DNA from: an uncultured Holophagae bacterium
GTDB lineage: Bacteria > Acidobacteriota > Thermoanaerobaculia > Thermoanaerobaculales > Sulfomarinibacteraceae
Direction of reading: 5' to 3'
NCBI GenBank assembly: GCA_963710645.1
Contig: CAVQBD010000009.1
Span: 1,551,199 to 1,615,198, forward strand
Length of the DNA stretch: 64,000 nucleotides
The notes under the pieces are model-generated. The model was not told where the DNA came from. It searched no databases and saw nothing but the letters and a program-made list of their open reading frames with translations. Every line of letters starts with the position of its first letter. Within the stretch, counting starts at the first letter, position 1. Made by a program: the position numbers and the translations under genes. This document shows, in pieces, positions 4,405 to 20,298 of the stretch.

Positions 4405-4416
4405 TGGAACGTTCCA
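4405..4416. promoter_or_regulatory. Candidate LacI-family operator O3 (TGGAACGTTCCA)
   Basis: Third identical copy, 81 bp centre-to-centre from O2. Confidence 0.6.
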
Positions 4417-4492
4417 ACGATCGGTTTGGGGGATCGGTCGTGCGAACTGAACGGCCCGGTTTGGGCCATGAACCAAGGAGAGGGAGGTAGCA

Positions 4493-7192
4493 ATGACGTC
4501 ACATCGTTTCACCCGATACAGGACAGTCTCAACCTTCACACTCGTGATGGCTCTGGTGTCGATCACTGCGGTGGCGCAGGACGGGACCGGGGTCATCACC
4601 GGAACGGTGACTGGATCTGCGGGCAATGCCATTGAGAGCTGTCGGGTCACCATTGAGGACATGAACAGGGAAGCCACCACCGGGATGGACGGCACATACC
4701 GGTTGGCTCCGGTACCGGCAGGAGAGAGAACCCTGGTCTTCAGTTTTCTCGGGCTGCAACCGGGAACCGCCACGGTGACGGTTGTGGCGGGTGAGACCGT
4801 CAACCTGGACATGACCCTTCTCTACGGTGGTGAGATCGAGGTTCGTGGATCACCGTTGCTGGTCGGGCAGGCAAAAGCGCTCAACCAGCAAAAGAACGCC
4901 ATCAATATCTCGAACATCGTGGCCGCCGACCAGATCGGCCGCTTCCCCGACAAGAATGCCTCCGAGGCGACCCAGCGAGTGCCCGGTGTCAGTCTGGCGC
5001 GCGACATGGGTGAGGGCCGTTACGTCATCATCCGCGGCACCGAGGCCAGGCTCAACTCGACCACGGTCAACGGCGAGCGGATTCCGTCGCCGGAAGCGGG
5101 CGTCCGGAACGTCGCCCTCGACACCATCCCGGCTGATCTCCTGGGCTCGATCGTGGTTTCGAAGGCCCTGAGACCGGACATGGACGGCGACTCCATCGGC
5201 GGCACCGTCGATCTGGTGACCATGAGGGCTCCCGAAGAGACTCGGGTGTCGGCCGCCCTTGGTTTTGGCTACAGCGAGCTGATGGAAGAAACAGCCCCCA
5301 CCGGCACTGCCACCTTCGGGACTCGATTCGGACCCGATTCGAAGTGGGGTGTGCTGGTATCGGGAAGTTATAGCGACACCAAGCGTGGGGCCGACAACAT
5401 CGAGCCGGCGTACGACGACGGCGAACTCGAAGAACTCGAGATGCGCGATTACACCACCGAGCGTCAGCGGTCCGGCATCACAGCCGACCTCGACTACCGG
5501 GCAAACGCCCGCTCGAACTACTATCTCCGCGGTCTTTGGACCAACTACGTCGACGATGAAATCCGGCGCGCCAAGACCAACAAGGTTGCCGATGAGGAAC
5601 TCGAGCGATCGCTCAAGGACCGCAAGCAGGAGTCCTACATCAACTCCATTTCCTTCGGCGGCGAGAACAACATCGGTGAGGCCTTCGTCCTCGACTACCG
5701 CGTGATGTACAACAAATCACAAGAAGAAACCGACCACCAGTACACCTCGGCCTTCGAGATGGGAGACGTGATCTTTGATACCAACGTCAGTCCCGATTCC
5801 ATCGACCCGAACAACATTCAGGCCAATCCGCTAAACGAGGATCCCGCCGATTTCTGGTTCGCGGACATCGAGGACCTGAGCAAGCAAGCCCACGAGGAGG
5901 ACTTTGTCCTCGCCGCCAACCTCACCAAGGGCTTCTACAAAAACGCAGGTTTCAGCGGGCTTTGGAAGGTGGGCGCGAAGTACCGGACCAAGAACAAAGA
6001 CCAAAACTACGACGTCTACGACCTCGAGGCGGATGACGACTTGAACATGGTTCCGTTTCTGGACGACTGGAACTCCGAGACCCCGTTCTTCAACGGGATC
6101 TATGGTGATCAAATTTTCCCGTTCCAGGACCCCGATCTCATGAGGGAGCTCGGCGCGAGCGGGCTCCTGGAATCCGAGAGAAATCTGGAGGAGGATCTCG
6201 CCGACTTCGATATCACCGAGGACACCCTGGCCGCCTATGCCCTGGGCGAATTCCTCTTCGGCGCGAAATCCACCTTCATGGGTGGCGTTCGAGTGGAGAG
6301 CACGTCGGATGACTACATGGCCTACGAGCTGATCCTGGATGAAGAAGGAGACGCGGTGTCGCTGTTGCCGGTTTATGGCGACAAGAGTTGGACCGAGTGG
6401 CTGCCCCAGTTCCACTTCATCTACAAGACCGGAAACGACTCTCAGCTCCGCGCCGCCATCACCCGCAGTCTGGCCCGGCCAAACTTCGAGGACATGGCCC
6501 CGTGGCGGCTGACCAACCTGGAGGACCGTGAAGTCGAACTCGGCAATCCCGATCTGGATGTCACCACCGCCTGGAACCTCGATCTCATGTGGGAGAAGTA
6601 CCTGCAACCGGTGGGCATCCTCTCGGCTGGGGTCTTCTACAAAGACCTGACCGACTACATCTACATCTTCCAGGTCGATGACGTCATCGAAGGCGAAGAT
6701 GTGGAAATCACCCAGCCGCGAAACGGCGACAAGGGCACCTTGGCGGGCCTCGAGTTCGCCTTCCAAAACCAGTTCACAAACTGGGATGGATTCTGGGGAG
6801 GATTTGGTCTCTACCTCAACTACACCTACGTCGACTCCGACGCCAAGTACCCGGACCGTGAGTCTACCTCGCTGCCCGGGCAGTCGGAACACGTGGGCAA
6901 CCTCGCGCTGGTCTACGAGAAGTACGGCATCACCACCCGGCTGGCATACAACTACAACGGCAAACAGCTGATTGAGGTTGGCGGGGACGCCGACGAGGAT
7001 ATTTATGTCGACGACCACGGCCAGCTCGACTTCATGTTCCGTATCCAGGTCGCGAAGAGGTTCAGCATCATCGCCGAGATCATCAACATCACCGACGAGC
7101 CGTACACCGCCTATGAAGGCACCCCGGACCGGATCCGCCAGCAGGAGTACTACAGCTGGTGGGCGACGCTCGGCGTGAGGTTCGACCTTTAG
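4493..7192 (+). CDS. TonB-dependent outer-membrane receptor with N-terminal carboxypeptidase-regulatory-like domain
   Basis: 899 aa. Signal peptide, CarbopepD_reg-like GVITGTVTG...GTYRLAPVPAGERTLVFSFLG, plug region (NISNIVAADQIGRFPDKNASEA) and long beta-barrel ending ...TLGVRFDL. Strong SD GGAGAGGGAGG upstream. Confidence 0.9.
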   Translation: MTSHRFTRYRTVSTFTLVMALVSITAVAQDGTGVITGTVTGSAGNAIESCRVTIEDMNREATTGMDGTYRLAPVPAGERTLVFSFLGLQPGTATVTVVAGETVNLDMTLLYGGEIEVRGSPLLVGQAKALNQQKNAINISNIVAADQIGRFPDKNASEATQRVPGVSLARDMGEGRYVIIRGTEARLNSTTVNGERIPSPEAGVRNVALDTIPADLLGSIVVSKALRPDMDGDSIGGTVDLVTMRAPEETRVSAALGFGYSELMEETAPTGTATFGTRFGPDSKWGVLVSGSYSDTKRGADNIEPAYDDGELEELEMRDYTTERQRSGITADLDYRANARSNYYLRGLWTNYVDDEIRRAKTNKVADEELERSLKDRKQESYINSISFGGENNIGEAFVLDYRVMYNKSQEETDHQYTSAFEMGDVIFDTNVSPDSIDPNNIQANPLNEDPADFWFADIEDLSKQAHEEDFVLAANLTKGFYKNAGFSGLWKVGAKYRTKNKDQNYDVYDLEADDDLNMVPFLDDWNSETPFFNGIYGDQIFPFQDPDLMRELGASGLLESERNLEEDLADFDITEDTLAAYALGEFLFGAKSTFMGGVRVESTSDDYMAYELILDEEGDAVSLLPVYGDKSWTEWLPQFHFIYKTGNDSQLRAAITRSLARPNFEDMAPWRLTNLEDREVELGNPDLDVTTAWNLDLMWEKYLQPVGILSAGVFYKDLTDYIYIFQVDDVIEGEDVEITQPRNGDKGTLAGLEFAFQNQFTNWDGFWGGFGLYLNYTYVDSDAKYPDRESTSLPGQSEHVGNLALVYEKYGITTRLAYNYNGKQLIEVGGDADEDIYVDDHGQLDFMFRIQVAKRFSIIAEIINITDEPYTAYEGTPDRIRQQEYYSWWATLGVRFDL

Positions 7193-7208
7193 GGAAACGA
7201 GAAACATC

Positions 7209-8240
7209 ATGAAGGACGTGATCGTCGGCGTTGTCGGCATCGGTCGAATCGGCCGGATGCACGTGTACAACTTGGTGCACCGGATCCCATGGGCCCGGGT
7301 GAAGGCGGTGGCCAGCCCGCATATCGACGTGGACTGGGCTCGTCAAATGGACATCCCCGTGGCCACCACGGATGCCGATGCGCTGTTTCACGATCCTGAA
7401 ATTCAGGCAATCGTCATTGCTTCCCCCTCGGGGCGGCACGTCGAGCTGATTCGGCGTGCCGCCCATTCGGGAAAGCACATCTATTGTGAAAAACCGGTCG
7501 CCTTCGAGGAGGAACCCATTCTCGAGGCGATGCAAGCCGTTGAGACCGCCGGGGTTCAGCTCCAGGTGGGTTTCAATCGCCGCTTCGACCCCAGCATCTG
7601 CCGGATGGCCGAAGCGGTCCGCGACGGAGCGGTGGGCTTGGTCGAGGGTGTACGGATCGTCAACCGCGATCCGTCCGCCCCGCCCATCGATTTTGTGCGG
7701 CGGTCCGGCGGCATGTTCTTCGATTTCACGATCCACGATTTCGACACGGCCAGGTTTCTGAGCGGCAGCGAGATCGAGGAGGTCTACGCGGCAGCGGCGG
7801 TGCTGATCGACCCGGAGATCGGCGCCGCCGGTGACATCGACACTGCGCTCTTGACCCTGCGGTTGGCCAACGGCGCCCTGTGCACCATCGACAACAGCCG
7901 CCAGACTAACTACGGCTATGACCAGCGGTTCGAGGTCTTCGGATCAAAGGGTAATCTGGTGGTGGACAATCTCCGACCCACCACCATGGAGGCCTTTCTG
8001 GAAGGCGGAGTTTTTGCAGACAAGCCCCTTCCCTCGTTTCCCGATCGATACCAGGACGCATTCGTCAGCGAGCTGGAGGCCTTCGTCGGCTGCGTAGCCG
8101 ATGGTTCGCCGGTGTCGGTCACGGCCGCCGACGCGCTGGCGTCGGTGCGGGCCGCAAAAGCGGCAAGGACCTCGATGTTGGAAAACAGACCGGTGCGGGT
8201 CGCATCTGTGACGACGACCGGGGAAGGGGTCGGCCGATGA
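7209..8240 (+). CDS. Gfo/Idh/MocA-family NAD(P) oxidoreductase, inositol 2-dehydrogenase-like (paralog 1)
   Basis: 343 aa. Rossmann start VGVVGIGRIGRMH and EKP motif (IYCEKPVA), in an inositol-pathway context. Confidence 0.8.
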   Translation: MKDVIVGVVGIGRIGRMHVYNLVHRIPWARVKAVASPHIDVDWARQMDIPVATTDADALFHDPEIQAIVIASPSGRHVELIRRAAHSGKHIYCEKPVAFEEEPILEAMQAVETAGVQLQVGFNRRFDPSICRMAEAVRDGAVGLVEGVRIVNRDPSAPPIDFVRRSGGMFFDFTIHDFDTARFLSGSEIEEVYAAAAVLIDPEIGAAGDIDTALLTLRLANGALCTIDNSRQTNYGYDQRFEVFGSKGNLVVDNLRPTTMEAFLEGGVFADKPLPSFPDRYQDAFVSELEAFVGCVADGSPVSVTAADALASVRAAKAARTSMLENRPVRVASVTTTGEGVGR

Positions 8241-9235
8241 AAGAGATCATCACCGGTGTTGTGGGGGCCGGCAGGATCGGCAAACTCCACGCCGACAATT
8301 TGGTTGCGATGCCAGGGATTCGACTGAAGGCCATCGCCGATCCGTTCATCGTCCCGGACGAGTGGACGAATCGTGGGATCGCGCCGATTCTCGATCCCGA
8401 AGAGGTGATCAACGATCCCGAGATCGAAGCCGTCCTCATCTGCTCGCCGACCCCGACCCATGCGGATTTCACCGAACAGGCGGCCGAGGCCGGTAAACAC
8501 ATCTTCTGCGAAAAGCCGATCGCGCTCGATCCCGAACGGGTCCGCGAAACGCTGCGGGTCGTGGAGAGAGCCGGGGTCACGCTCCAGGTGGGTTTCAATA
8601 GGCGTTTCGACCCCACCTTCGCCAGAGTCCGCAGGGCGGTGGCCGACGGCGAAATCGGCGACATCCACATCGTCAAGGTCATGGCGCGGGATCCGGCGCC
8701 ACCTCCGGCGGAGTATGTGGCGGCCTCGGGTGGGATGTTTCTCGACATGACCATCCACGACTTCGATATGGTTCGCTTTCTCTCCGGCAGCGAGGTGGAA
8801 GAGGTCCAGGCCTTCGGCACGGTTCTGGTCGACCCCGCCATCGGGGAGGCCGGCGATGTGGATACCGCGGTGCTGACGCTCAGGCTGGCCAACGGCGCCT
8901 TGGCGGTGATCGAAAACAGCCGCCGCGCGGTGTTTGGCTACGACCAGCGAGTGGAGGTCTTTGGGTCGAAGGGGGGCGTGGAGGCGTTCAACGAGTCACC
9001 GTGCCAGGTTCGGCGGCGCACCGCCGAGGGCGAGCGTGCGGAAAACCCGCTCTACTTCTTTCTGGAGAGATACCGCCAGTCGTTCATTGCGGAGCTGGAG
9101 GCCTTTTTCACCTGCATCAGGGAAGATTCCCCGCCTCCGGTCACCGGTCGGGATGGGCTGATCCCCCTCCTCATCGGTGTGGCGGCCAAGCGGTCGATGC
9201 GCGAAAACCGACCCATACGGGTCGAGGCGCCGTGA
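8237..9235 (+). CDS. Gfo/Idh/MocA-family oxidoreductase, inositol dehydrogenase-like (paralog 2)
   Basis: 332 aa. GVVGAGRIGKLH and IFCEKPIA. Clearly paralogous to the upstream gene. ATGA start/stop overlap. Confidence 0.8.
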   Translation: MKEIITGVVGAGRIGKLHADNLVAMPGIRLKAIADPFIVPDEWTNRGIAPILDPEEVINDPEIEAVLICSPTPTHADFTEQAAEAGKHIFCEKPIALDPERVRETLRVVERAGVTLQVGFNRRFDPTFARVRRAVADGEIGDIHIVKVMARDPAPPPAEYVAASGGMFLDMTIHDFDMVRFLSGSEVEEVQAFGTVLVDPAIGEAGDVDTAVLTLRLANGALAVIENSRRAVFGYDQRVEVFGSKGGVEAFNESPCQVRRRTAEGERAENPLYFFLERYRQSFIAELEAFFTCIREDSPPPVTGRDGLIPLLIGVAAKRSMRENRPIRVEAP

Positions 9236-10578
9236 ATCCGTTCAGGTTTCTCGCCACCGGGGCGGATAAACCGCTGCTGGAGGATCAGGGCCTGATTGAC
9301 CGGCTGTACAAACGGCACCGATTGCGCATCATGCTGGCGATCACAATCGGATACGGCCTGGTCTACACTTGTCGTCTGGCGCTCTCGGTGGTCAAGAAAC
9401 CGCTGATCGATGGCGGCATCTTCACGCCGGAGCAGCTCGGGACAATCGGTTCCGCCCTGTTTTACACCTATGCCTTCGGAAAACTCACCAACGGGTTTCT
9501 CGCGGACCACGCCAACCTGAAATTGTTTTTTGCGGTCGGTGTGCTCGGTTCGGCGTTTCTGAACCTCGGCATGGGCTTCTCCACCGTGATGTGGGCTTCG
9601 GTGTTGCTGTGGGCCCTCAACGGCTGGTTCCAGGGATTCGGCGCACCCTCCGGTGCGGTGGCCATGGCCAGCTGGTTTTCAAACCGCGAACGGGGGAGGA
9701 TCTACGGCATCTGGAGCACCGCCCACGCCATCGGCGAGGGGCTCACCTTTGTGGGCGTGGCTGCGGTGGTGGCGATGTGGGGATGGCGTGCGGGTTTCTG
9801 GGCGCCGGGCCTGATGTGCATTTTCGTGGCCGGAGCCCTCTATCTGCTCATGCAGGATCGTCCACGCACCATGGGTTTGCCCGCAGTGGCCGACTGGAAG
9901 GATGACCACTGGAGCGGAGCGGAGGGTGCGGATGCCGAAAAGGGCACCTGGACGACCCAGCGCTCCATCCTGAAGATCCCCGCCATCTGGGTGCTCGCCC
10001 TGTCGAGCGCTTCGATCTACGTCACCCGCTATGCCATCAACAGCTGGGGCGTGTTGTATCTCCAGGAGGCCAAGGGCTACTCCCTGCTTCAGGCGGGCAG
10101 CGTCATCTCGGTCAACACCCTGGCCGGGATCATCGGTGCGGTGGCCTTCGGCTTCTCCTCGGACAAGATCTTCAAGGCGCGGCGACCGCCCACCAACGTG
10201 ATCTTCGCCGTCATCGAGCTTGTGGGTCTGGGGCTGATCTTCTTCGGTCCCAGCGGCCGTCCGGCCTTCATGACCTTCGCCTTCTTCATCTACGGCTTCG
10301 GCTTGACGGGGCTGATCACGTCGCTCGGCGGGCTCTTCGCGCTCGACATCGCGCCGAAGCGCGCCGCCGGGGCGGCCATGGGTTTCATCGGGGTCTTTTC
10401 CTACCTGGGTGCTGCGATCCAGGACCAGATCAGCGGCTACCTGATCGGCCAGGGAAGCACCATCGTGGACGGTGTGCGGTATTACGACTTCAGCAGTGTG
10501 ATCGTTTTCTGGGTTGGCTCGTCCATCGTATCGGCGGTTCTGGCGACCACCCTCTGGCGAGTCAAGTTACGGGACTGA
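9232..10578 (+). CDS. MFS transporter, organophosphate:Pi antiporter (GlpT/UhpC-like) family
   Basis: Track ORF 9001..10578 trimmed to the GTG at 9232 (GTGA overlap with the upstream stop). The product is multi-TM. The N-terminal RLRIMLAITIGYGLVYTCRLALSVVKKPL resembles OPA-family signature regions. Confidence 0.75.
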   Translation: MNPFRFLATGADKPLLEDQGLIDRLYKRHRLRIMLAITIGYGLVYTCRLALSVVKKPLIDGGIFTPEQLGTIGSALFYTYAFGKLTNGFLADHANLKLFFAVGVLGSAFLNLGMGFSTVMWASVLLWALNGWFQGFGAPSGAVAMASWFSNRERGRIYGIWSTAHAIGEGLTFVGVAAVVAMWGWRAGFWAPGLMCIFVAGALYLLMQDRPRTMGLPAVADWKDDHWSGAEGADAEKGTWTTQRSILKIPAIWVLALSSASIYVTRYAINSWGVLYLQEAKGYSLLQAGSVISVNTLAGIIGAVAFGFSSDKIFKARRPPTNVIFAVIELVGLGLIFFGPSGRPAFMTFAFFIYGFGLTGLITSLGGLFALDIAPKRAAGAAMGFIGVFSYLGAAIQDQISGYLIGQGSTIVDGVRYYDFSSVIVFWVGSSIVSAVLATTLWRVKLRD

Positions 10579-10587
10579 GGAACCTCA

Positions 10588-11541
10588 ATGAGCAACCGAC
10601 AGACGATATACGACGTTGCAGCGATCGGAAACTACACAAAGGACACGGTGGTCCACCCGGCGGGGACTCGCCAGGTCGACGGCGGAGGCGTTCGCTACGC
10701 GGCCTATGCGGCCGCCGGCCTCGGCTGTCGCGTCGCGGCCCTCACCAGGCTCGCCCACGAGGATGCCCGGGTTGTGGCTGATCTCGAGCAGGCCGGGGTC
10801 GACGTCTTCCCCGTCTTCACCTCGGATTCGACTCAGATGCGGCTCGAGTATCCCACCACCGACCCCGACCAGCGGACTCTCACGGCGGCCACCACCGCCG
10901 GGTCGTACACCGTGGAACACGTCGATTCAGTTGCGGCCCGCAGCTATCTGATCACCGCCTCCATTCGGGGCGAGGTTCCTGTGGAGGTTGTTCGCCGGCT
11001 TCGGGCGACCGGAGCCACCATCGCCCTCGACGTCCAGGGCTTTGTCCGCATCCGCCAGCCCGACGGGAGACTCGTGCACGCAGAGTGGCCTGACGCGTCC
11101 CTCGTACTTTCAATGGTGGACATCCTCAAGACCGATGCTGTGGAAGCCGAGTCGCTGACCGGTGAGTCGGACCCGGAAATCGCGGCGCGGCAGCTGGCCG
11201 AGCTGGGCCCGACCGAGGTGCTCGTCACCCATCGGGACGGGCTGCTCGTGCTCGCCGACGGCACGATTCATGAAGCTCGATTCCATCCCAAGGAAATGGT
11301 GGGCCGCAGTGGACGCGGCGACACCTGTCTGGGGTCGTACACCGCGGCGAGACTGGGCGTTGAGCCCGCGGAGGCCACCATCTGGGCGGCCGCGATCACC
11401 AGCCTCAAGATGGAGTCGGACGGTCCATTCCACCGAGGGATCGCCGAGGTGGAGGATCTTCTGCAACGAGAGTACGGACTGGTTCCGGGTGGACCCCCGG
11501 TTCCTGCCCCAATACCAACGGGGAACAATGCCGGGGCGTGA
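10588..11541 (+). CDS. PfkB-family carbohydrate kinase
   Basis: 317 aa. PfkB C-terminal signature region GRSGRGDTCLGSY. Occupies the same position as the kinase in Thermotoga-type iol clusters. Confidence 0.8.
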   Translation: MSNRQTIYDVAAIGNYTKDTVVHPAGTRQVDGGGVRYAAYAAAGLGCRVAALTRLAHEDARVVADLEQAGVDVFPVFTSDSTQMRLEYPTTDPDQRTLTAATTAGSYTVEHVDSVAARSYLITASIRGEVPVEVVRRLRATGATIALDVQGFVRIRQPDGRLVHAEWPDASLVLSMVDILKTDAVEAESLTGESDPEIAARQLAELGPTEVLVTHRDGLLVLADGTIHEARFHPKEMVGRSGRGDTCLGSYTAARLGVEPAEATIWAAAITSLKMESDGPFHRGIAEVEDLLQREYGLVPGGPPVPAPIPTGNNAGA

Positions 11542-11574
11542 ATCCCCGAGCTGACGAAATGGAGGAAGAAGTCC

Positions 11575-12732
11575 ATGAAAGGTATGGTTCTTGACGCGAA
11601 GTGGGATCCCAAGGCGGACTACACGGTATCGGATTGGGAGAAGGAGACGGGGAAGGCCATCACGGGAAACGCCATCTGGAGAAATCCGACGCTCGAGGTG
11701 CGTGACTGGCCCGATCCCGAACCGGGACCACAGGAGGTCGTGCTCGCGATCCAGGCCTGTGGTGTCTGCGGTTCGGATATGCACTTCTATGAGACCGATG
11801 ACCAGGACTACATCCTGTATCCCGGACTGACCAAATTTCCGACCATCCTCGGCCACGAGTTCTCGGGCAAGGTGGTGGCGACCGGGAAAGACGTCAAGCT
11901 TCTCAAGATCGGCGACATGGTGACCGTGGAGGAGATGATCTGGTGCGGCCGTTGTATTCCGTGTCGCAACGGATATCCCAACCACTGCAGCAATCTGGAA
12001 GAGATCGGTTTCACGATTCCGGGTGCGTTCGCGAATTTTATCGCCGTGGACGAAAAATTCTGTTGGAAGATCGACGCCATCGCCGAACGGTACGGTAGCG
12101 AAGAAAAGGCCTATGCCGTGGGTGCACTCACCGAGCCCACCTGCGTCGCATACAACGCCATGATCGAACGGGCCGGCGGATTCCGTCCCGGCCACTATGT
12201 GAACGTGGTTGGTGCGGGTCCCATCGGGCTCGCGGCCATCGGGATCGCCAAGGCGGCCGGTGCCGGCATCATCGCGGCATTCGAGGTTTCCCCGAAACGG
12301 CGCGAGCTGGCCAAGCTGGTGGGCGCGGATTACGTCTACGACCCTCGAGAGGTCAGCACCGGTGAGGTGCTGATGGAGCTCAGCGGCGGCGCGGGCTTCG
12401 ATTTTCACGTCGAGGCCGCAGGGGTCCCGGAGATCGCGATTCCCGAGATGGAGAAGGCGCTGGCCATCAACAGCAAGATCGTCCAGATCGGTCGTGCGGC
12501 CAAGCGAGTGCCGACCTATTTCGAGGCCTTCCAGGTCCGCCGCGCCCAGGCGTACGGGGCGCAAGGGCACTCGGGTCACGAGACCTTCCCCAACGTCATC
12601 CGCATGGTGGCCTCGGGGCGTCTCGATCTCAGCCCCATCATCACGGCGCACTACGGTCTTGACCAGACCGTCGCCGCCATCGCGAAATCGGTGGAACGGT
12701 CCGACGGCAAAATCATGGTGAACCCGAACTAG
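11575..12732 (+). CDS. iolM: Zn-dependent MDR alcohol dehydrogenase, scyllo-inosose 3-dehydrogenase (IolM)-like
   Basis: 385 aa. CGVCGSDMHFYE Zn-ligand region, GHEFSGKVV, GAGPIGLAA Rossmann. The iolM assignment rests on gene context and my recollection of the T. maritima pathway. Confidence 0.6.
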   Translation: MKGMVLDAKWDPKADYTVSDWEKETGKAITGNAIWRNPTLEVRDWPDPEPGPQEVVLAIQACGVCGSDMHFYETDDQDYILYPGLTKFPTILGHEFSGKVVATGKDVKLLKIGDMVTVEEMIWCGRCIPCRNGYPNHCSNLEEIGFTIPGAFANFIAVDEKFCWKIDAIAERYGSEEKAYAVGALTEPTCVAYNAMIERAGGFRPGHYVNVVGAGPIGLAAIGIAKAAGAGIIAAFEVSPKRRELAKLVGADYVYDPREVSTGEVLMELSGGAGFDFHVEAAGVPEIAIPEMEKALAINSKIVQIGRAAKRVPTYFEAFQVRRAQAYGAQGHSGHETFPNVIRMVASGRLDLSPIITAHYGLDQTVAAIAKSVERSDGKIMVNPN

Positions 12733-12762
12733 TCACCGAGACGAGGAATCCGGGAGTCGAGT

Positions 12763-13803
12763 ATGGACGAGTTGCGTGTCGCAGTCGTTGGCGTGGGTCG
12801 CATCGGGCTGACCCATGCCGAGCACCTGGCCCGGCGGGTGCGCGGTGCGCGGCTCGTCGCTGTCACCACGTCACGGGCTGACCGCACCGACGCAGTTCGA
12901 GCGGTCTGCTCAGACGTGGCGGTCTACCCTACCACCGAGTCCATGCTGAAGAACGAGGGCCTCGACGCGGTGGTCATCGCCAGCAGTACGTCGGCCCATG
13001 TGGACAACGTCGTGCAGTGCTCGGAAGCCGGGCTGCACATTCTGTGCGAGAAGCCCCTGTCCCTCGATCTCGATGGCTGCGACCGAGCGGTGTCGGCCGC
13101 CGATGCCGCAGGCGTGAAACTGATGATCGGTCACGTCCGCCAGTTCGATTCCGGCAACCTCGAAGCCAAGAAATTGATCGACGGGGGCGCCATTGGCCGA
13201 CCGGTGCTCTACCGGTCCATCAGCGGTGATATGGACCCGCCGCCGGCCAGCTTCGCCGACCTCGGCGTCAGTGGTGGTCTGATCCTGGACTCCATGTACC
13301 ACGACATCTACCTCGGACGCTGGCTCATGGACGACGAGGTGGTCCGTGTTTTCGGCGAAGGTGGTGCCCTGATAGATGACGGTGTGCGGTCGGTGGGAGA
13401 CGTGGACAATGCGGTGGTCAGCCTCCGGTTCGAAGGCGGTTCCATGGGGACCCTCACCGCCAGCCGAGTCACCAGGTACGGCCATGATGTGCGAGGCGAA
13501 GTGATCGGCGACGAAGGAGCGGTCCAGATCGGCCGTTATCGCCACACTCCGGTGCGGCTCATGGACCGCCATGGCATCCATCACGACATGGCCCACACCA
13601 CACCCGAGAGGATGGGTGAGGCCTTCGTCACCATGTTGCAGGCCTTTGTGGATTGCATCGTCGACGACACCCCACCTCCGGTCAACGGCCGGGACGGGGC
13701 GGCGACGCTGACGGTGGCCCTTGCAGGTCGCCGGTCGATCCAGACCGGCCAACCGGTCGAGGTTGAAACAAAAACAAGGCCGTCATCTGGCGGCAAAACA
13801 TAG
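12763..13803 (+). CDS. Gfo/Idh/MocA-family oxidoreductase, inositol dehydrogenase-like (paralog 3)
   Basis: 346 aa. VAVVGVGRIGLTHA and ILCEKPLS. Confidence 0.8.
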   Translation: MDELRVAVVGVGRIGLTHAEHLARRVRGARLVAVTTSRADRTDAVRAVCSDVAVYPTTESMLKNEGLDAVVIASSTSAHVDNVVQCSEAGLHILCEKPLSLDLDGCDRAVSAADAAGVKLMIGHVRQFDSGNLEAKKLIDGGAIGRPVLYRSISGDMDPPPASFADLGVSGGLILDSMYHDIYLGRWLMDDEVVRVFGEGGALIDDGVRSVGDVDNAVVSLRFEGGSMGTLTASRVTRYGHDVRGEVIGDEGAVQIGRYRHTPVRLMDRHGIHHDMAHTTPERMGEAFVTMLQAFVDCIVDDTPPPVNGRDGAATLTVALAGRRSIQTGQPVEVETKTRPSSGGKT

Positions 13804-13836
13804 AGCTCTCGAAAGAAGCGAGAGAAGGAGCATCAC

Positions 13837-14961
13837 ATGGCAAACGCCCCAGAAGATCCACGGTTGCTGGCCACCGATCAGCCGGATCTGTTCTTCGAGG
13901 ACAACACGGTTGGACGGTGCAAGAAAGAAGTTTGGGACGCGAGCGACGCGGAGATCGACCAGATCCTCGCCGATTACGGGATTCCGTCCCCCTGCGAGTG
14001 GGGCAAGGCCGGGTCCTATATCCAGACCACGGTGCGCCACCAGGTCGAGGCCGAGCGTCGGAAAAACGACATCGTCTTCATCCCCATAGGCTGCACCGAG
14101 CTCCACGGCCGCCACCTCCCGAGCGCCTCTGACACCCTCTATGTCAGTCAGATCCTCGAGGGTGTGCGACGTTTCACCGCCAAGAGCGGGGCTCCGGCGA
14201 GTCTCGCGCTGCCGCCGCTCAACTACGGCTCCCACCCCTATCATCATCTGGGAATGCCGGGCACGGTCATCATCCGCGAGAACATCGCCCGCGAGTTCCT
14301 CATGGATGTCATGCTGGGCCTCTGGAACGACGGTTTCCGAAAGCAGATCCTGATCAACAACCACGGTCATCTGTGGATGCTCGAGTCGGCCATCCAGCAG
14401 TTCCAGAAGCGCTACCAGCTGCCGGGCGTCTTCCGCGTCATCGACTGGCACCGGGCGGTCCGCGAGTTCTTCCGGACCGAGCCCAAGGGCGGCAAGATGG
14501 ACACCAATTTCGTCCACGCCGACGAGTCGGAGACGTCACTCGGTCTGCTGCTCCATCCCGATATGGTGGATATGGACTATGCGGTGGACACCGAGGGCAT
14601 AGGCTACCTGCCGGATGGGCACTTCGACAAGTCGGTGGATCCCTTCAGCCGGCCGAGCCGCTGGTCCGAGGGAGAGGGCCACTTCGCCATCGAGATCGCC
14701 GCGACTCCCGAGGGGGTGGTCGGTAAGGCCACCCGGGGCACCGCCGAAAAGGCCAAACGACCGGTCGCCGCAATCCTCAAGTATCTGACCCTGCTCAACG
14801 ACCAGATCCTCGAAGCCTTTCCGGCGGGCACCGTGCCACCGGTGGAGATGGTCACCCTCCGCACCGAGGCCGAGATGGAGCCCTATCTCCGCGAGCCCTT
14901 GAGTGATGGATGGAAGCCGGTCTATCAGCTGCCGCGGATCGGTCAGGGATCAAACTCGTAG
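13837..14961 (+). CDS. iolN: Creatininase-superfamily hydrolase, 3-dehydro-scyllo-inosose hydrolase (IolN)-like
   Basis: 374 aa. Creatininase-family motifs IPIGCTELHGRHLP and HADESETS. The iolN call is by context. Confidence 0.6.
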   Translation: MANAPEDPRLLATDQPDLFFEDNTVGRCKKEVWDASDAEIDQILADYGIPSPCEWGKAGSYIQTTVRHQVEAERRKNDIVFIPIGCTELHGRHLPSASDTLYVSQILEGVRRFTAKSGAPASLALPPLNYGSHPYHHLGMPGTVIIRENIAREFLMDVMLGLWNDGFRKQILINNHGHLWMLESAIQQFQKRYQLPGVFRVIDWHRAVREFFRTEPKGGKMDTNFVHADESETSLGLLLHPDMVDMDYAVDTEGIGYLPDGHFDKSVDPFSRPSRWSEGEGHFAIEIAATPEGVVGKATRGTAEKAKRPVAAILKYLTLLNDQILEAFPAGTVPPVEMVTLRTEAEMEPYLREPLSDGWKPVYQLPRIGQGSNS

Positions 14962-14971
14962 GACAACTACG

Positions 14972-15775
14972 ATGAAACTCAGCGTCGTGCTGTCAACCCA
15001 CGCCGCCGCCTTCCAGGCGGTGGCATTCAAGGGCGATTTCGAGGCCAACGTGGCCAAGATCGCCGGTTGGGGTTATGACGGTGTCGAACTCGCCGTGCGG
15101 GATCCAAATTTGGTGAACGCCGGCGAGCTCGAACGCGTCATCACCTCGCAGAATCTGGTCGTGCCCGCCATTGGCACCGGTCAGGCGTGGGGCGAGGAAG
15201 GACTTTCGTTCACCAGTGACGATGGGACGGTTCGGGCCGCAGCCATCGACCGAATCATCAGCCATATCCCGTTGGCCGAGCACCTGGACGCCATCGTGAT
15301 CTTGGGCCTGATTCGCGGTGTCACACCGGAGGGTCAGACCCACGATCAATCCATGGCCCACCTGGTGGAGGCCATCCGCGAATGCGCCGTGGCCGCCGAG
15401 GGGACCGGGGTGCGATTCGCATTGGAGCCAATGAACCGCTACGAAACTGACCTCATTCACTCGGCGGCGCAAGGGCTGGATCTGGTGGAGAGGGTGGGTC
15501 GAGACAACTTTGGATTGTTGCTCGACACCTTTCACATGAATATCGAGGAGCCCTCCATCGAGGAGAGCATCCGACTCTGCGGCGAGCGGATCTTCCATTT
15601 TCACGTGGCGGACTCGAACCGCTGGTACCCCGGAGCCGGGCATCTCGATTTCTCCTCGATTCTGCAGACTCTTGCCGAAACGGGCTTCGGCGGCTTTGTA
15701 TCCGGTGAATTCATGCCGCTGCCCGACGCCGATTCATCAGCCCAACGCGGCATTGCTCACTTGAGGAGCCTGTGA
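14972..15775 (+). CDS. iolO: Xylose-isomerase-like TIM-barrel sugar(-phosphate) isomerase/epimerase, 5-keto-L-gluconate epimerase (IolO)-like
   Basis: Track ORF 14903..15775 trimmed to the ATG at 14972 (MKLSVVLSTHA), 10 nt after the upstream stop. FALEPMNRYET and LLDTFHMNIEE are typical AP-endonuclease-2/TIM-barrel metal-site blocks. Confidence 0.65.
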   Translation: MKLSVVLSTHAAAFQAVAFKGDFEANVAKIAGWGYDGVELAVRDPNLVNAGELERVITSQNLVVPAIGTGQAWGEEGLSFTSDDGTVRAAAIDRIISHIPLAEHLDAIVILGLIRGVTPEGQTHDQSMAHLVEAIRECAVAAEGTGVRFALEPMNRYETDLIHSAAQGLDLVERVGRDNFGLLLDTFHMNIEEPSIEESIRLCGERIFHFHVADSNRWYPGAGHLDFSSILQTLAETGFGGFVSGEFMPLPDADSSAQRGIAHLRSL

Positions 15776-15814
15776 CACACGGACTGTGGGCGGCCGGCTG
15801 AACGGAGACAGTCT

Positions 15815-17290
15815 ATGAACCCGTTGGCGACTCTCGCAGGGGTGGACGATCTCGAAGTCGCACCCAGCTCCATTGTCGAGGCACAGGGCACAACCTACGC
15901 TCTGGCGACGCGCGACAACTCGAAATTCGTGGTGGTCCTCGGCGATTCGAGCGGTTTCGAGGGAGAAGATCACCGACCGGGCGGTGTACGTCTGTCTCCG
16001 GTGAGTCCATCCACACTGTCCGGGCTTCGGATGCGTCTGCCGTGGCTGCTGCCGGTTCCATTGGGGCTTCGCACCTCATTTGGTTTCGGTGACAGGCTCG
16101 GGCTCGCTACACCCGGGCACATCCGGTCCCTCCGGTCTCTCCGTGGAGCAACCCACGGCATCGCGCCCATCTTCGCCCAACAGTCGGTTCGGGAGAATTT
16201 TCGCACCGGCCGCACTCCCCGACAGGTGATGGACGATGCCGCCTGGGCGGTCTTCGAGCACGGTTGGCGCGACCCGTGGGGTGCCGATGCCGACCATCTC
16301 AAGACACCGGACGACGCCTCGAAATTCGCAGCCGCCGGCTTCACCTTCTTTACCATTGATCCGGGCGAGCATGTGGATGACGATGTGGACGCGGCCAATT
16401 TGGAGGCCAAGGTTCGAGGCCTGCCGTGGAGCTCCCTCGAGGACACCGTGGAGGATTTCGAAAGACGGTTCCTGTCTTCCCCCTTCGACCTCGAGGGCAC
16501 CTCGGTGCCATTCGACCGGGCATCGCTGTGGGGAGCCGCCGCAAAGTATGGCCGTGCTGTTGCGCACACGGCTGAGATGTATCGCCACATCGCTGCGATC
16601 ATGGAGGACCGGCCTTTCGAACTCGAGGTTTCGGTGGACGAGACCGACAGTCCGACCAGCGTGCCGGAACACATCTACATCGCGAGCGAACTGCGGCGGC
16701 TGGGGGTGCGCTGGGTGAGTCTGGCGCCCCGGTTCGTGGGACGGTTTGAAAAGGGTGTCGACTACATAGGCGACCTCGAGGAGTTCTCACGACAATTCGC
16801 TAAGCACGCTGCCGTCGCTCGCCAATTGGGACCATACAAGCTGAGCCTGCACTCTGGATCGGACAAGTTCAGCATCTACCCGGTTGCCAGTCGGCTGACC
16901 CGTCACGGTGCGAGGTCCCCCGGTCCGCTGGTCCACGTCAAGACCGCGGGAACCAGCTTCTTGGAGGCCCTGCGGGCCGTCGCCCGTGTCGATCCGGATC
17001 TGTTTCGGAGCGTCCTCGCCCTGGCGAAGGAGCGATACGAAAAGGACAAGCTGACCTACCACGTGTCGGCTGATCTTGCTCGGGTGGCCTCGCCCGAGGA
17101 CCTCGACGATTCGGAGCTCGAGGGTCTGCTCGAGCAGTTTGATGCTCGAGAGGTACTCCACGTGACCTTTGGATCCGCGCTGGATCGGTATGGCGATCCA
17201 ATCCGCGCGACCCTCGTGGAAAACAAGCAGGCGTATTCCGATGTGCTCACCTCGCACTTCGCCAAACACCTCGCGGATTTTGTGGATTGA
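15815..17290 (+). CDS. uxaE: Tagaturonate/fructuronate epimerase (UxaE)-like protein
   Basis: 491 aa. The size and the blocks SFGFGDRLGLATPGH and GADADHLK match my recollection of the UxaE family. Lies directly downstream of the IolO-like gene. Confidence 0.5.
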   Translation: MNPLATLAGVDDLEVAPSSIVEAQGTTYALATRDNSKFVVVLGDSSGFEGEDHRPGGVRLSPVSPSTLSGLRMRLPWLLPVPLGLRTSFGFGDRLGLATPGHIRSLRSLRGATHGIAPIFAQQSVRENFRTGRTPRQVMDDAAWAVFEHGWRDPWGADADHLKTPDDASKFAAAGFTFFTIDPGEHVDDDVDAANLEAKVRGLPWSSLEDTVEDFERRFLSSPFDLEGTSVPFDRASLWGAAAKYGRAVAHTAEMYRHIAAIMEDRPFELEVSVDETDSPTSVPEHIYIASELRRLGVRWVSLAPRFVGRFEKGVDYIGDLEEFSRQFAKHAAVARQLGPYKLSLHSGSDKFSIYPVASRLTRHGARSPGPLVHVKTAGTSFLEALRAVARVDPDLFRSVLALAKERYEKDKLTYHVSADLARVASPEDLDDSELEGLLEQFDAREVLHVTFGSALDRYGDPIRATLVENKQAYSDVLTSHFAKHLADFVD

Positions 17291-17394
17291 GGAGGATTTC
17301 GAGATGTGTCGCCCGATGCGCCGTGGGCCGTTTTATGGATCTCCGGCCGTTGGGCCTTTGTGATCGCTGAATTTCCCTGACCCCGGGGGACGAT

Positions 17395-18699
17395 ATGACC
17401 ATTGGAACGAGCAGCACAGCCCGCCCCCTCACCCAAAGCGAGGTTCGCGGCATCATGGCCGAAGCTCTAGACCATCTCGAGCTGGATGGTCAGCGGATAT
17501 TGGTCATCATTCCCGATGGGACCCGTACCGCGCCCATCCCCCTCATGAGGCGTCTGTTCAGTGAGTTGCTTGGTTCACGGGTCGAAAAAATCGACTACCT
17601 TGTGGCCCTCGGAACCCACCCACCCATGGACGACGGCGCCCTGTCCCGTCTACTGGGCACCAAGGTGCTCGACGGCAAGGCTGGATCTTCGAGGGTCTTC
17701 AACCATCGATGGGATGTGGAAGAGACCTTTGTCACCCTGGGCACGGTGCCCGCCGCCGAGGTGGCTGCAGCCAGCGGCGGCCGACTCGAGCTCGACATTC
17801 CGGTGCGCCTCAATCGGTTGGTGGGCGAGCCGGACGGTTCGAGCCCCTATGATTTGATCGTGGTCTGCGGCCCGGTATTCCCCCATGAGGTCGCGGGATT
17901 TTCCGGCGGAAACAAGTACTTCGTGCCCGGGGTCGCGGGCCCCGAGATCATCAACGTGACCCACTGGATCGGGGCCCTGGTCACCAGCCGCGAGATCATT
18001 GGCGTCGCCGACACCCCGGTGCGGCGGCTGATCGATCGCGCGGCGTCCCATGTTGCAACCCCCACCCTGTTGGTGGCCATGGTGCTCGAGGGCACATCGC
18101 TCCACGGGCTCTTCGTCGGTGGGATGGAGGAGACCTGGCGTGCTGCCGCGAGGTTGTCGGCCGAGCTGGACATCGAATGGGTCGACAAGCCCTTTGAAAG
18201 GGTGCTGTCCATGGTGCCCGAGATGTATGACGATCTGTGGACCGGCGCCAAGGGTATGTACAAGCTCGAACCCGCCATCGCCGATGGCGGCGAGGTGGTG
18301 GTCTACGCGCCGCACATCACCGAGGTCTCTTATGTCCACGGGCGGTGGCTGGACGAGATCGGTTACCACGTCCGAGATTACTTCGTCGAACAGTGGCATC
18401 GATTTATGCATGTGCCCTGGGGCGTGATCGCCCACTCCACCCATCTCCGGGGCGACGGCAGCTTCATCGACGGCGTCGAGCGGCCACGGATCCGGGTGAC
18501 TCTGGCCACCGGAATCCCGCGGGAGCGCTGCGAGTCCATCGGTCTCGGCTACCTGGACCCCGCGACGGTGGACCCGGAGGAATGGGCCGGGCGGGAGGAG
18601 GAGGGCGTGATGCTGGTTCGAAGGGCCGGCGAACGGCTGTACCGACTGAAAGAGGAGATCCCGGCGACGAGACTTTCCAGTTCACAGGAGGGGAACTGA
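17395..18699 (+). CDS. LarA-family (nickel-pincer-cofactor dependent) 2-hydroxyacid racemase/epimerase homolog
   Basis: 434 aa. DUF2088/LarA N-terminal pattern ILVIIPDGTRTAP. FPHEVAGFSGGNKYFVPG carries the His and the Lys that tethers the cofactor in LarA. Confidence 0.75.
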   Translation: MTIGTSSTARPLTQSEVRGIMAEALDHLELDGQRILVIIPDGTRTAPIPLMRRLFSELLGSRVEKIDYLVALGTHPPMDDGALSRLLGTKVLDGKAGSSRVFNHRWDVEETFVTLGTVPAAEVAAASGGRLELDIPVRLNRLVGEPDGSSPYDLIVVCGPVFPHEVAGFSGGNKYFVPGVAGPEIINVTHWIGALVTSREIIGVADTPVRRLIDRAASHVATPTLLVAMVLEGTSLHGLFVGGMEETWRAAARLSAELDIEWVDKPFERVLSMVPEMYDDLWTGAKGMYKLEPAIADGGEVVVYAPHITEVSYVHGRWLDEIGYHVRDYFVEQWHRFMHVPWGVIAHSTHLRGDGSFIDGVERPRIRVTLATGIPRERCESIGLGYLDPATVDPEEWAGREEEGVMLVRRAGERLYRLKEEIPATRLSSSQEGN

Positions 18700-18730
18700 C
18701 AGGCCGGCACGGACCTATCAGGCCTGAGGA

Positions 18731-18772
18731 AGAAAATGAGAAATGAGAAATGAAAAATGAAGGACGTGAAAA
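18731..18772. repeat. Heptamer-periodic tandem array (AGAAAAT GAGAAAT GAGAAAT GAAAAAT ...)
   Basis: About 6 units of 7 nt, read directly, in the 159-bp gap between the LarA-like gene and phoD. Confidence 0.8.
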
Positions 18773-18858
18773 TCGAGACTCGGATTTCGGGACTCGTAAA
18801 TGTCTGATAACGAGAATGTGGTGGTGGCCAATGAGCCATCACCTGTGGAAGGTTTGAC

Positions 18859-20298
18859 ATGAGATTATCCTCCGTTGTTTCGCGATGCGTAATGCTCTCG
18901 CTGATTGTTTTCACCCTGACGTCACCCGCACTGGCCGCGTCGCGGGACGACGATGGGTACCCGAGGCTGATGCAGGGTCCAATGGTGGGGACCGTGACTC
19001 CTACCGAGGCACATATCTGGCTTCGAACCACGGGCGAGTATGTCGTCACCATCGAGTACGGCACCGGCTTCGAACTTCGATCGGCTCTCACCACCGAACC
19101 GGTGACGGCGAGCAAGACTGCGGACTACACGCTGGTGGTGACGATCCCAGATCTCCAACCCGCCACCGAGTACTTCTACCGCGTACTGGTCGACGGCCAG
19201 GGCGACAAATATCTCGAGGAATATCCGCCGTTCCGATTCAAGACCGCACCGGCCCCGGGAACCAGCGCCAGCTTCAGGGTCGGCTTCGGTTCCTGTCCCA
19301 AATACCAGGATGACCGGATGCAGCCGATCTGGCCGGTCATCTCGGGATTCGAACCGGATCTGTTTTTCTGGATTGGGGACAACATCTACGGCGACACCCT
19401 CGACCCGGACATCCTGCGTGAGGAGTACCGCCGCCAGCGCGATGTCCCCGGGTTGCAACCCCTGCTGCACAACACCTCGCACCTCGCCGTCTGGGATGAT
19501 CATGATTTCGCGCTCAACAACCACGATCGAACCAACCCCATCAAGGACCGGGCGCTCGAGGTGTTCAAGGACTACTGGGCCAACCCTGCCTACGGACTGC
19601 CCGATGTACCGGGTGTGTTCTACAGCTACAGCTTCGGCGACGTTGATTTCTTTTTCATCGACGATCGCTATTACCGGGATCCCAACTCGGATCCGGACAC
19701 CCCGGAGAAGACCATGTTGGGACCCGCCCAGTTTGACTGGCTGCTCGAGCGGTTGTCGGCGAGCACAGCGGTCTTCAAGGTGATCGTATCGGGAAGCGGC
19801 TTCAGCAAGGCCAAGGGCGAGGGCGGCGACTCGTGGGCCGCGTTTCTCAACGAACGGAACAGGCTTTTTGACTTCATTCGGGACGAGGAGATCAGCGGCG
19901 TGGTCCTGCTGACGGGCGACTCCCACGTGGGCGAACTCAACGTGATTCCGTGGTCGGAGCGGGGCGGCTACGATCTCTACGATCTCGTGAGTTCGCCACT
20001 GGCCCAGCGCAACCCGGATTCATGGCTGCACCGGAGACCCGAGCGGCGCATCCGTCCGGTGTACTTCAGGGGAAGCAGTGTCGGCGTGGTGGACTTTCTG
20101 CTCGATGATCCGCCACGCTTGATGTACCGCATCATCGACATCCACGGCCGCAACGTCTGGGAGCCATTCGTTGTGCGGGCGGACGAGCTGGTCAACGGCG
20201 TGACATCCTGGCCCGATAAGGTCCACAGCGATTCCAGACAACGCCAGGAGAACTACGATGCTGGCAAGGGCTATTACGAGATCGAGGCGGAGGACTAG
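18859..20298 (+). CDS. phoD: PhoD-family alkaline phosphatase/phosphodiesterase, secreted
   Basis: 479 aa. Signal peptide. FWIGDNIYGD, AVWDDHDF and LLTGDSHVGE metallophosphatase blocks typical of PhoD. Confidence 0.85.
   Translation: MRLSSVVSRCVMLSLIVFTLTSPALAASRDDDGYPRLMQGPMVGTVTPTEAHIWLRTTGEYVVTIEYGTGFELRSALTTEPVTASKTADYTLVVTIPDLQPATEYFYRVLVDGQGDKYLEEYPPFRFKTAPAPGTSASFRVGFGSCPKYQDDRMQPIWPVISGFEPDLFFWIGDNIYGDTLDPDILREEYRRQRDVPGLQPLLHNTSHLAVWDDHDFALNNHDRTNPIKDRALEVFKDYWANPAYGLPDVPGVFYSYSFGDVDFFFIDDRYYRDPNSDPDTPEKTMLGPAQFDWLLERLSASTAVFKVIVSGSGFSKAKGEGGDSWAAFLNERNRLFDFIRDEEISGVVLLTGDSHVGELNVIPWSERGGYDLYDLVSSPLAQRNPDSWLHRRPERRIRPVYFRGSSVGVVDFLLDDPPRLMYRIIDIHGRNVWEPFVVRADELVNGVTSWPDKVHSDSRQRQENYDAGKGYYEIEAED

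Follow-up and report, generated by a model that had tools for sequence, protein, structure and literature searches.

By which route does an uncultured bacterium of the Acidobacteriota degrade inositol, and in what form would the inositol reach it? The question is raised by a gene cluster at positions 7209-17290 of a 64-kb stretch of DNA (contig CAVQBD010000009.1 of an uncultured Holophagae bacterium), and "the window" below means this whole stretch. Our answer, which we hold at a probability of roughly 75%, is that the cluster is part of a LacI-controlled locus that would degrade inositol by an oxidative route of the Thermotoga type and not by the classical IolCDEB route. Pfam and NCBIfam profile scans with curated equivalog cut-offs covered 49 open reading frames (ORFs) of the window, essentially all non-overlapped ORFs of at least 200 amino acids together with the cluster genes, and comparisons with the Protein Data Bank (PDB) were made by searching the sequences of all solved structures. 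Relatives of the IolN protein were found in at least 546 stretches of a one-genome-per-species collection, and the best 80 of these matches, with 10-kb flanks, are the related loci L001-L080 referred to below, in which gene order was read from tblastn searches with all window proteins.

The range 7209-17290 holds nine intact, co-directional genes, which we regard as an operon-like array because the intergenic gaps are only -4 to 39 nucleotides (nt). The genes, with profile scores, are as follows.

7209-8240, + strand: IolG-a, inositol 2-dehydrogenase paralog (TIGR04380, 395.6 bits; cut-off 355)
8237-9235, + strand: IolG-b, inositol 2-dehydrogenase (TIGR04380, 442 bits; cut-off 355)
9232-10578, + strand: major facilitator superfamily (MFS) transporter of 448 amino acids, organophosphate:phosphate antiporter (OPA) family (PF07690, 151.7 bits)
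10588-11541, + strand: PfkB/ribokinase-family kinase, TM0415 homolog (PF00294, 49.3 bits)
11575-12732, + strand: IolM, scyllo-inosose 3-dehydrogenase, a zinc-dependent alcohol dehydrogenase (Zn-ADH) of 385 amino acids (NF041097, 536.4 bits; cut-off 450)
12763-13803, + strand: IolG-c, divergent Gfo/Idh/MocA inositol-dehydrogenase-like paralog (TIGR04380, 301.8 bits; cut-off 355 not reached)
13837-14961, + strand: IolN, 3-dehydro-scyllo-inosose hydrolase with a creatininase fold (NF041098, 311.4 bits; cut-off 245; PF02633, 154.3 bits)
14972-15775, + strand: IolO, 5-keto-L-gluconate epimerase, a xylose-isomerase-like TIM barrel (NF041099, 331.8 bits; cut-off 300)
15815-17290, + strand: UxaE, tagaturonate/fructuronate epimerase (PF16257, 455.5 bits, 473 of 475 profile positions)

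All the gene types that a sequence-only reading of this cluster had listed are found here as intact ORFs with full-length profile matches, and its gene list was correct for the genes that it named but omitted the MFS transporter. The same reading had taken the names IolM, IolN, IolO and UxaE from context and had recognised the whole as the IolG-IolM-IolN-IolO-UxaE set of Thermotoga. Both proposals are borne out by the profiles: every member of the set is present, IolM, IolN and IolO each lie above the cut-off of their own NCBIfam equivalog model, two of the IolG copies do the same, and UxaE matches PF16257 over its full length. The expected closeness of the Zn-ADH and the TIM barrel to the Thermotoga enzymes is likewise seen in the PDB comparison, where the best matches stand far above the next. 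For IolM the best match is 3ip1 (354.5 bits, 45% identity over 361 positions) and the next family is threonine dehydrogenase at 168.6 bits; we take 3ip1 to be TM0412, the search output having given a generic name for it. For IolO the best match is 2zvr, "Uncharacterized protein TM_0416", at 233.1 bits, followed by ketose 3-epimerases at 103.9 bits. We placed the start of IolO at 14972, since the listed ORF opens at 14903, the profile match begins at residue 24, and an ATG is found there. UxaE matches the tagaturonate/fructuronate epimerases 9lhu and 6il9 at 362 and 298 bits. The PDB holds no structure of TM0413, so that there is no Thermotoga structure with which to compare IolN, and the nearest structures, at no more than 56 bits, belong to generic creatininase-fold proteins. 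It is the equivalog model, together with context, that carries the IolN assignment. That this protein might be a true creatininase was considered and rejected, the creatininase models giving 58-65 bits against 311 for the IolN model.

The cluster had also been described as having no IolE, IolD or IolB, and this holds both for the cluster and for all 49 ORFs scanned across the 64 kb, among which IolC, IolJ and IolA were not found either. What is seen of the classical pathway amounts to sub-threshold traces, at 23 bits for IolE inside IolO and 22 bits for IolC inside the PfkB kinase.

Three dehydrogenase paralogs had been counted in the cluster, and three are there. Identity is 51% between IolG-a and IolG-b and 33% between IolG-c and either of them. 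IolG-b is the copy closest to 3ezy (343 bits), with the inositol 2-dehydrogenase 4hkt next at 300.7 bits. The best PDB match of IolG-c is also 3ezy (215.8 bits), followed by the Lactobacillus inositol dehydrogenases 4mkx and 4n54 at 152 bits. The output again gave a generic name for 3ezy, which we take to be TM0414. The slot of IolG-c between IolM and IolN is conserved, with orthologs of 61-90% identity, mostly adjoining IolN, in Acidobacteriota and in some Chloroflexota loci. Since the oxidation of myo- and of scyllo-inositol gives scyllo-inosose in both cases, it is plausible that the three paralogs differ in the stereoisomers that they prefer.

Below fructuronate, the argument depends on two further genes, of which the first lies just beyond the flagged range and the second on the opposite strand.

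17395-18699, + strand: LarA-superfamily protein, GntE homolog (PDB 4nar, 205.6 bits; NF052594, 189 bits, below 500)
23636-24421, - strand: short-chain dehydrogenase/reductase (SDR), candidate fructuronate reductase (NF006132 D-mannonate oxidoreductase, 272.4 bits, below 281)

The gluconate 5-dehydrogenase model scores the SDR at 199.5 bits, and its start at 24421 was placed from the profile alignment. In four related loci (L002, L005, L006 and L018) its orthologs, at 69-72% identity, are found between UxaE and the LarA homolog. The LarA homolog itself matches lactate racemase structures at no more than 34 bits, and it conserves the equivalents of the catalytic His108 and His174, the cofactor-linking Lys184 and the nickel-binding His200 of LarA, with its GTH, PHE, GGNK and THW motifs aligning to those of 2yjg. 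LarAH20/GntE2 of T. maritima epimerises D-mannonate to D-gluconate, and a solved structure of the D-gluconate epimerase apoprotein is mentioned in the same work (Desguin et al. 2020, PMC7583248). We take the structure closest to the window protein, 4nar ("putative uronate isomerase"), to be this gluconate epimerase of T. maritima. The LarA homolog is thus predicted, from these conserved residues and its nearest structure, to be a nickel-pincer-cofactor enzyme that converts D-mannonate to D-gluconate. In two related loci the array continues further (L025:13498-19332 and L004:13454-18455): UxaE is followed by a mannonate oxidoreductase (354-357 bits), a GntE-like LarA protein and then the 6-phosphogluconate dehydrogenase Gnd (768 bits in L025 and 774 bits in L004). 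Behind Gnd, L025 has a pyrophosphate (PPi)-dependent phosphofructokinase and L004 a PfkB sugar kinase. Since gnd continues the array in both of these loci, an exit via mannonate, gluconate and 6-phosphogluconate is supported, resembling the TM0438-TM0443 arrangement of T. maritima. An ORF of 299 amino acids with no family match stands before the LarA gene in L025 (L025:14338-15237) and could be a missing step such as gluconate kinase.

The kinase within the array matches TM0415 entries and nothing else in the PDB (1vk4, 5ysp and 7e4l, at 123-129 bits). TM0415 is a PPi-dependent inositol kinase for which K171, F221, R229, R232 and M266 were defined as donor-site residues, along with an RxGRGD motif (Nagata et al. 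2018, PMC5931981). In an alignment to 5ysp, all five PPi-donor residues are identical in the window kinase and the motif reads RSGRGD. At the acceptor site the window kinase differs from TM0415 by N78L, S89L and L116S, exactly as does homolog No. 49 from Levilinea saccharolytica, which phosphorylated myo-inositol with PPi and not with ATP and did not use 2-keto-3-deoxygluconate (KDG) (PMC5931981). The RxGRGD and KxDxxE motifs are kept in 32 of 32 cluster-linked kinase homologs of the fetched loci. We predict on these grounds that the window kinase is PPi-dependent. The possibility that it is instead a PPi-using KDG kinase like LguH of Luteolibacter seemed less probable to us: the annotation of LguH is that of an ordinary KDG kinase, the window kinase matches only TM0415, and its acceptor-site residues are shared with a homolog that phosphorylates inositol and does not use KDG. 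The kinase also carries a Pro/Gly-rich C-terminal tail of about 30 residues (…LVPGGPPVPAPIPTGNNAGA) that is absent from TM0415, and the homologs in most related loci align over about 296 residues only.

What surrounds the array bears on the second half of the question, the form in which inositol would arrive. The functional unit is larger than the range first flagged and covers roughly 1931-24421, with 15 co-directional genes over 4493-23604 at gaps of no more than 159 nt. Its regulatory, uptake and phosphate-ester features are these.

1931-3127, - strand: beta-propeller phytase (PF02333, 153.7 bits; NF045638 phytase-like, 113 bits, below cut-off)
3187-4260, - strand: LacI-family regulator, divergent from the catabolic operon (PF00356, PF13377, PF00532)
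4279-4292, 4323-4336 and 4404-4417: perfect palindrome TGGAACGTTCCA, present three times in the 232 bp of the divergent promoter region and each time inside ATGGAACGTTCCAA
4493-7192, + strand: TonB-dependent outer-membrane receptor with an N-terminal CarboxypepD_reg domain, first gene of the operon (TIGR01782, 494.1 bits; cut-off 310)
18859-20298, + strand: PhoD-like phosphatase/phosphodiesterase with a signal peptide (PF09423, 100.3 bits; PF16655)
20302-21504, + strand: calcineurin-like metallophosphoesterase, probably exported (PF00149, 40.4 bits)

The receptor carries plug and beta-barrel domains, and its position is conserved in 17 related loci. The MFS transporter gene is present in 26 related loci, and full-length models score the protein at 287 bits for UhpC, 261 for the PgtP subfamily and 227 for GlpT. 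The equivalents of the phosphate-binding arginines R45 and R269 of GlpT are conserved in it, as judged by alignment with a GlpT sequence. We propose that it may act as an antiporter of inositol phosphate against phosphate (Pi). In the divergent transcription unit the phytase gene follows the LacI gene, and it probably encodes a lipoprotein, with an N-terminus that reads ...LMAFSLISC. The PhoD-like gene is found within the cluster in 10 related loci, and the metallophosphoesterase co-occurs with it in related loci.

The LacI protein gives RbsR-, PurR- and CcpA-like matches that all stay below the equivalog cut-offs, and its gene has the same position in related loci. The palindromes were spotted by eye and confirmed by a pattern search, whereas an inverted-repeat search of the promoter region returned none. 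The first two copies are 44 bp apart, and the three sites are the only matches to TGGAACGTTCCA in the 64 kb, against a chance expectation of 0.45. Upstream of the receptor gene, two to three copies are present in 18 related loci and a single copy in one more. It is probable from this placement and recurrence that the array is the operator of the LacI protein. The pattern search of the window found no copy near the SDR gene or upstream of GlpK/GlpD.

Taken by family membership, the enzymes would form a continuous path. IolG would oxidise myo-inositol, and perhaps other isomers, to scyllo-inosose; IolM would convert this to the diketone 3-dehydro-scyllo-inosose; IolN would open the ring by hydrolysis to give 5-keto-L-gluconate; IolO would turn the latter into D-tagaturonate; and UxaE would epimerise D-tagaturonate to D-fructuronate. 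Homology and synteny suggest that the SDR would then reduce fructuronate to D-mannonate, that the GntE-like LarA homolog would epimerise D-mannonate to D-gluconate, and that gluconate would enter the pentose-phosphate pathway through a gluconate kinase and a 6-phosphogluconate dehydrogenase encoded elsewhere. The genomic context further suggests phosphorylated inositol as the natural feedstock. Outside the cytoplasm, phytate or related esters would be trimmed by the lipoprotein phytase and by the exported PhoD-like protein and metallophosphoesterase. The products would be taken up through the TonB-dependent receptor and the OPA-type MFS transporter, the TM0415-type kinase would interconvert inositol and inositol phosphate in the cytoplasm, and the LacI protein would bind the TGGAACGTTCCA palindromes, all three of which stand between the divergent units.

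A more far-reaching version of this scheme, which we regard as very unlikely, would make imported inositol phosphates derived from phytate or phosphoinositol, and not free inositol, the real business of the pathway. The antiporter would import the monophosphate and the TM0415-type enzyme would run in reverse (inositol phosphate + Pi to inositol + PPi), so that the ester bond would be conserved as PPi, to be spent by enzymes such as the PPi-phosphofructokinase of L025. If true, this would account for the presence of a kinase in the catabolic operons of Thermotoga and Acidobacteriota alike, for the lack of an inositol monophosphatase in the cluster and for the failure of T. maritima to grow on free inositol.

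Several findings weigh against the Thermotoga-type reading as a whole. All function assignments in the locus are based on sequence, and the classical pathway may still be encoded elsewhere in the genome. IolG-c falls below the curated IolG cut-off (301.8 against 355), the MFS transporter is below its curated cut-offs, and the SDR does not reach the cut-off for mannonate oxidoreductase (272.4 against 281); its gene is 5 kb away from UxaE on the other strand and has no copy of the operator close by. None of the curated LarA-subfamily cut-offs is reached by the LarA homolog, whose best model, NF052594, "putative hexonate epimerase", gives 189 of the 500 bits set. Scans of the 64-kb window gave no gluconate kinase, gnd, uxuA, kdgK, eda, larB, larC or larE, for which reason the lower pathway cannot be closed within the window. 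The Michaelis constant (Km) of TM0415 for myo-inositol is 12 mM, and Nagata et al. consider that its true acceptor may be a pathway intermediate. Lastly, T. maritima itself did not grow on inositol (PMC3750489).

Three other explanations differ in the part of the scheme that they would change. One keeps the core enzymes as named but lets D-fructuronate leave by the published hexuronate route of T. maritima, through UxuB, the dehydratase UxuA to KDG, KdgK and the KDPG aldolase, with some other role or a side branch for the LarA homolog. D-Fructuronate is the endpoint that the sequence-only reading gave, the low NF052594 score of the LarA homolog and the lack of larB, larC and larE in the window would be accounted for, and L004 has a KDG-kinase-like PfkB gene after gnd. 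We nevertheless find this exit unlikely: neither the window nor the inspected flanks of L025 and L004 hold uxuA, kdgK or eda, gnd directly follows the LarA homolog in both of those loci, UxaE, SDR and LarA are adjacent in many loci, and the LarA homolog keeps the four catalytic and cofactor residues and has 4nar as its closest structure. Another explanation looks to the top of the pathway and holds that the real range of substrates is decided by the IolG paralogs. Phosphates of scyllo-, neo- and D-chiro-inositol occur in soils and sediments, the three paralogs are 33-51% identical with one of them under the IolG cut-off, and the structures that follow 3ezy for IolG-c, 4mkx and 4n54, are inositol dehydrogenases of Lactobacillus. 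IolO-type epimerases moreover serve L-glucose catabolism in Luteolibacter (PMC12632266). Two of the paralogs are, however, above the cut-off for myo-inositol 2-dehydrogenase, and no homologs of L-glucose or L-gluconate dehydrogenases were seen. Because IolM and IolN serve the scyllo-inosose branch specifically, and because oxidation of myo- and scyllo-inositol leads to scyllo-inosose alike, this explanation, which we think quite improbable, would widen the main one rather than replace it.

The remaining explanation concerns the surroundings and treats the phosphatase, receptor, antiporter and glycerol genes as mere neighbours, with free inositol entering by another transporter and the kinase using PPi to phosphorylate an acid further down the pathway, for instance gluconate or KDG. 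It would agree with the lack of an operator copy for GlpK/GlpD or the SDR, with the lack of a gluconate kinase in the cluster, with the existence of a PPi-using KDG kinase in Luteolibacter and with the suggestion of Nagata et al. that a pathway intermediate is the true TM0415 acceptor. The phytase is also outside the fetched 10-kb flanks of the related loci, which end short of, or at the edge of, the phytase and GlpK/GlpD positions. The arrangement of the genes speaks for a closer connection, since the receptor and the MFS gene are inside the operon, with gaps of at most 16 nt or overlapping stops, at positions conserved in 17-26 loci, since the PhoD-like and metallophosphoesterase genes are co-directional with the array and recur within the cluster, and since the phytase shares the divergent promoter that bears the operator. 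The Levilinea homolog with the same acceptor-site substitutions, furthermore, phosphorylated myo-inositol and not KDG. An accidental neighbourhood accordingly strikes us as distinctly unlikely, and we prefer the reading of the locus as one LacI-controlled unit for inositol degradation.

This preferred reading can be compared with five known systems. The inositol operon of T. maritima is reportedly TM0411-TM0416 (IolR, IolM, IolN, IolG, the TM0415 kinase and IolO), with UxaE at TM0440 (Rodionova et al. 2013, Environ Microbiol 15:2254). From inositol to fructuronate, each step has an enzyme of the same family here, and the PPi-type kinase and the lack of IolE, IolD and IolB are shared as well. 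The regulator, in contrast, is of the LacI type here and of the ROK type there, a TonB-dependent receptor and an OPA-family MFS transporter stand in place of the InoEFGK ATP-binding cassette (ABC) system, and there are three IolG paralogs instead of one. In the window, one operon takes in both UxaE and the GntE homolog, with the phytase, PhoD-like and metallophosphoesterase genes attached, and IolM is only 45% identical to 3ip1. The ABC transporter is said, in the 2013 Thermotoga paper, to prefer inositol phosphate, and this preference and the lack of growth of T. maritima on free inositol would fit a phosphorylated feedstock.

A second module of T. maritima, TM0438-TM0443 for hexuronates and gluconate, comprises Gnd, UxaR, UxaE, the SDR, GntE/LarAH20 and GntK. 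The linkage of UxaE, SDR and a LarA-family epimerase is shared with the window, and gnd is added in related Acidobacteriota loci, whereas the SDR of the window is displaced to the opposite strand and the window has no gluconate kinase or gnd. With TM0415 and Levilinea homolog No. 49, the window kinase shares the five donor residues and RxGRGD, and with No. 49 also the acceptor substitutions; it is nonetheless a distant member with respect to TM0415 (about 124-129 bits) and its Pro/Gly-rich C-terminal 30 residues are unmatched. The iol pathway of the Bacillus subtilis type has the IolG first step and the use of inositol as a carbon source in common with the locus, but the ring would be opened here by hydrolysis of a diketone and is opened there by dehydration and a thiamine diphosphate-dependent hydrolase, and no IolE, IolD, IolB, IolC, IolJ or IolA homolog occurs in the 64 kb. 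Finally, the TonB-dependent-receptor carbohydrate utilisation loci of Xanthomonas and Caulobacter combine a receptor, an inner-membrane transporter, catabolic enzymes, exported hydrolases and a LacI-type regulator. The window has the same components, its receptor belonging to the TonB-Xanth-Caul subfamily (TIGR01782, 494 bits); the differences are a proposed cargo of inositol phosphates and a host in the Acidobacteriota.

How far does the locus reach beyond this one genome? A protein search with IolN gave 2794 clusters at E<=1e-20, and the best 120 are 81-93% identical. Its nearest relatives are in Acidobacteriota metagenome-assembled genomes (MAGs) that bear the labels Holophagae, Thermoanaerobaculia/Thermoanaerobaculales or Sulfomarinibacteraceae, and Chloroflexota come next. 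The nearest locus, L001 (CAWCOD010000008.1), has an IolN of 99% identity and other proteins of only 84-95%, and it is for this latter reason a close relative and not the same genome. In Acidobacteriota the recurring order is receptor, IolG-a, IolG-b, MFS, kinase, IolM, IolG-c, IolN, IolO, (PhoD), UxaE, SDR and LarA. The sequence-only reading had placed the cluster in a GC-rich genome of Gram-negative type, which agrees with the GC content of the window (59-68%), with the TonB-dependent receptor and with the Acidobacteriota MAGs as nearest relatives; the host is probably a mesophilic diderm of about 62% GC. It had also seen an extension of the pathway well outside the Thermotogae. The extension is real but not new, since several IolN homologs in Anaerolineae MAGs are already named "3-dehydro-scyllo-inosose hydrolase" by NCBI, and since the KEGG orthology (KO) entries for iolM and iolN, K22231 and K22232, have been reported from MAGs of Megamonas (PMC13234733).

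Descriptions from T. maritima exist for the core pathway, for this type of kinase and for the LarA epimerase, and NCBIfam and KEGG already recognise the core. What is added here is the wider architecture of the locus, the operator, the link to GntE and the PPi-kinase signature; a literature search that covered few subscription papers turned up no description of this locus in Acidobacteriota or of its setting with phytase, receptor and antiporter. Current knowledge is not overturned, and the core enzymes are already labelled by curated models. The Thermotoga-type inositol route is no curiosity of thermophiles, being widespread in uncultured bacteria of sediment and soil (Acidobacteriota and Chloroflexota). 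Phosphorylated inositols are a major pool of organic phosphorus, and the phytase, phosphatase, receptor and antiporter context is the best available hint that they are the natural substrate. The locus also offers a concrete setting for the role of the PPi-dependent TM0415-type kinase, and the fused arrangement of IolO, UxaE, SDR and GntE supports an exit from mannonate to gluconate and into the pentose-phosphate pathway.

Across the Acidobacteriota and Chloroflexota loci IolN is 79-99% identical to the window protein, against 42-92% for IolG, 37-89% for the kinase and 44-91% for UxaE, a contrast that is partly selection bias because the 80 loci were chosen as best IolN matches. The 58-residue N-terminal extension of IolN beyond the NCBIfam profile is also conserved. 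Many Chloroflexota loci have a second, deep IolM clade (L058:4623-5789 and L065:11139-12305) with 42-47% identity to the window IolM, which likewise exceeds the equivalog cut-off (504-510 bits against 450).

Three more genes close the array or follow the locus.

21505-23604, + strand: DUF5916 protein of 699 amino acids, last gene of the co-directional array (PF19313, 66.7 bits)
24601-26178, + strand: GlpK, glycerol kinase (TIGR01311, 717.8 bits; cut-off 590)
26175-27734, + strand: GlpD, glycerol-3-phosphate dehydrogenase (NF008899, 293.9 bits, below 360)

A DUF5916 gene is inside the cluster also in L001, L007, L012, L013 and L017, and likewise in L004 (L004:18465-19727). GlpK is nearby in L001 and L017 as well, and GlpK and GlpD, which adjoin the locus, are no more than possible members of the system. 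A patatin-like phospholipase is found 5 kb beyond them (32163-33059, - strand), and the combination of GlpK/GlpD, this phospholipase and the phosphodiesterase-type enzymes hints at a use of glycerophosphoinositol or of phosphatidylinositol head groups. Between these genes, two ORFs overlap on opposite strands: one at 27898-29004 (+ strand) has no family match, and the other at 28510-29505 (- strand) carries CarboxypepD_reg and TPR domains and is for that reason probably the real gene.

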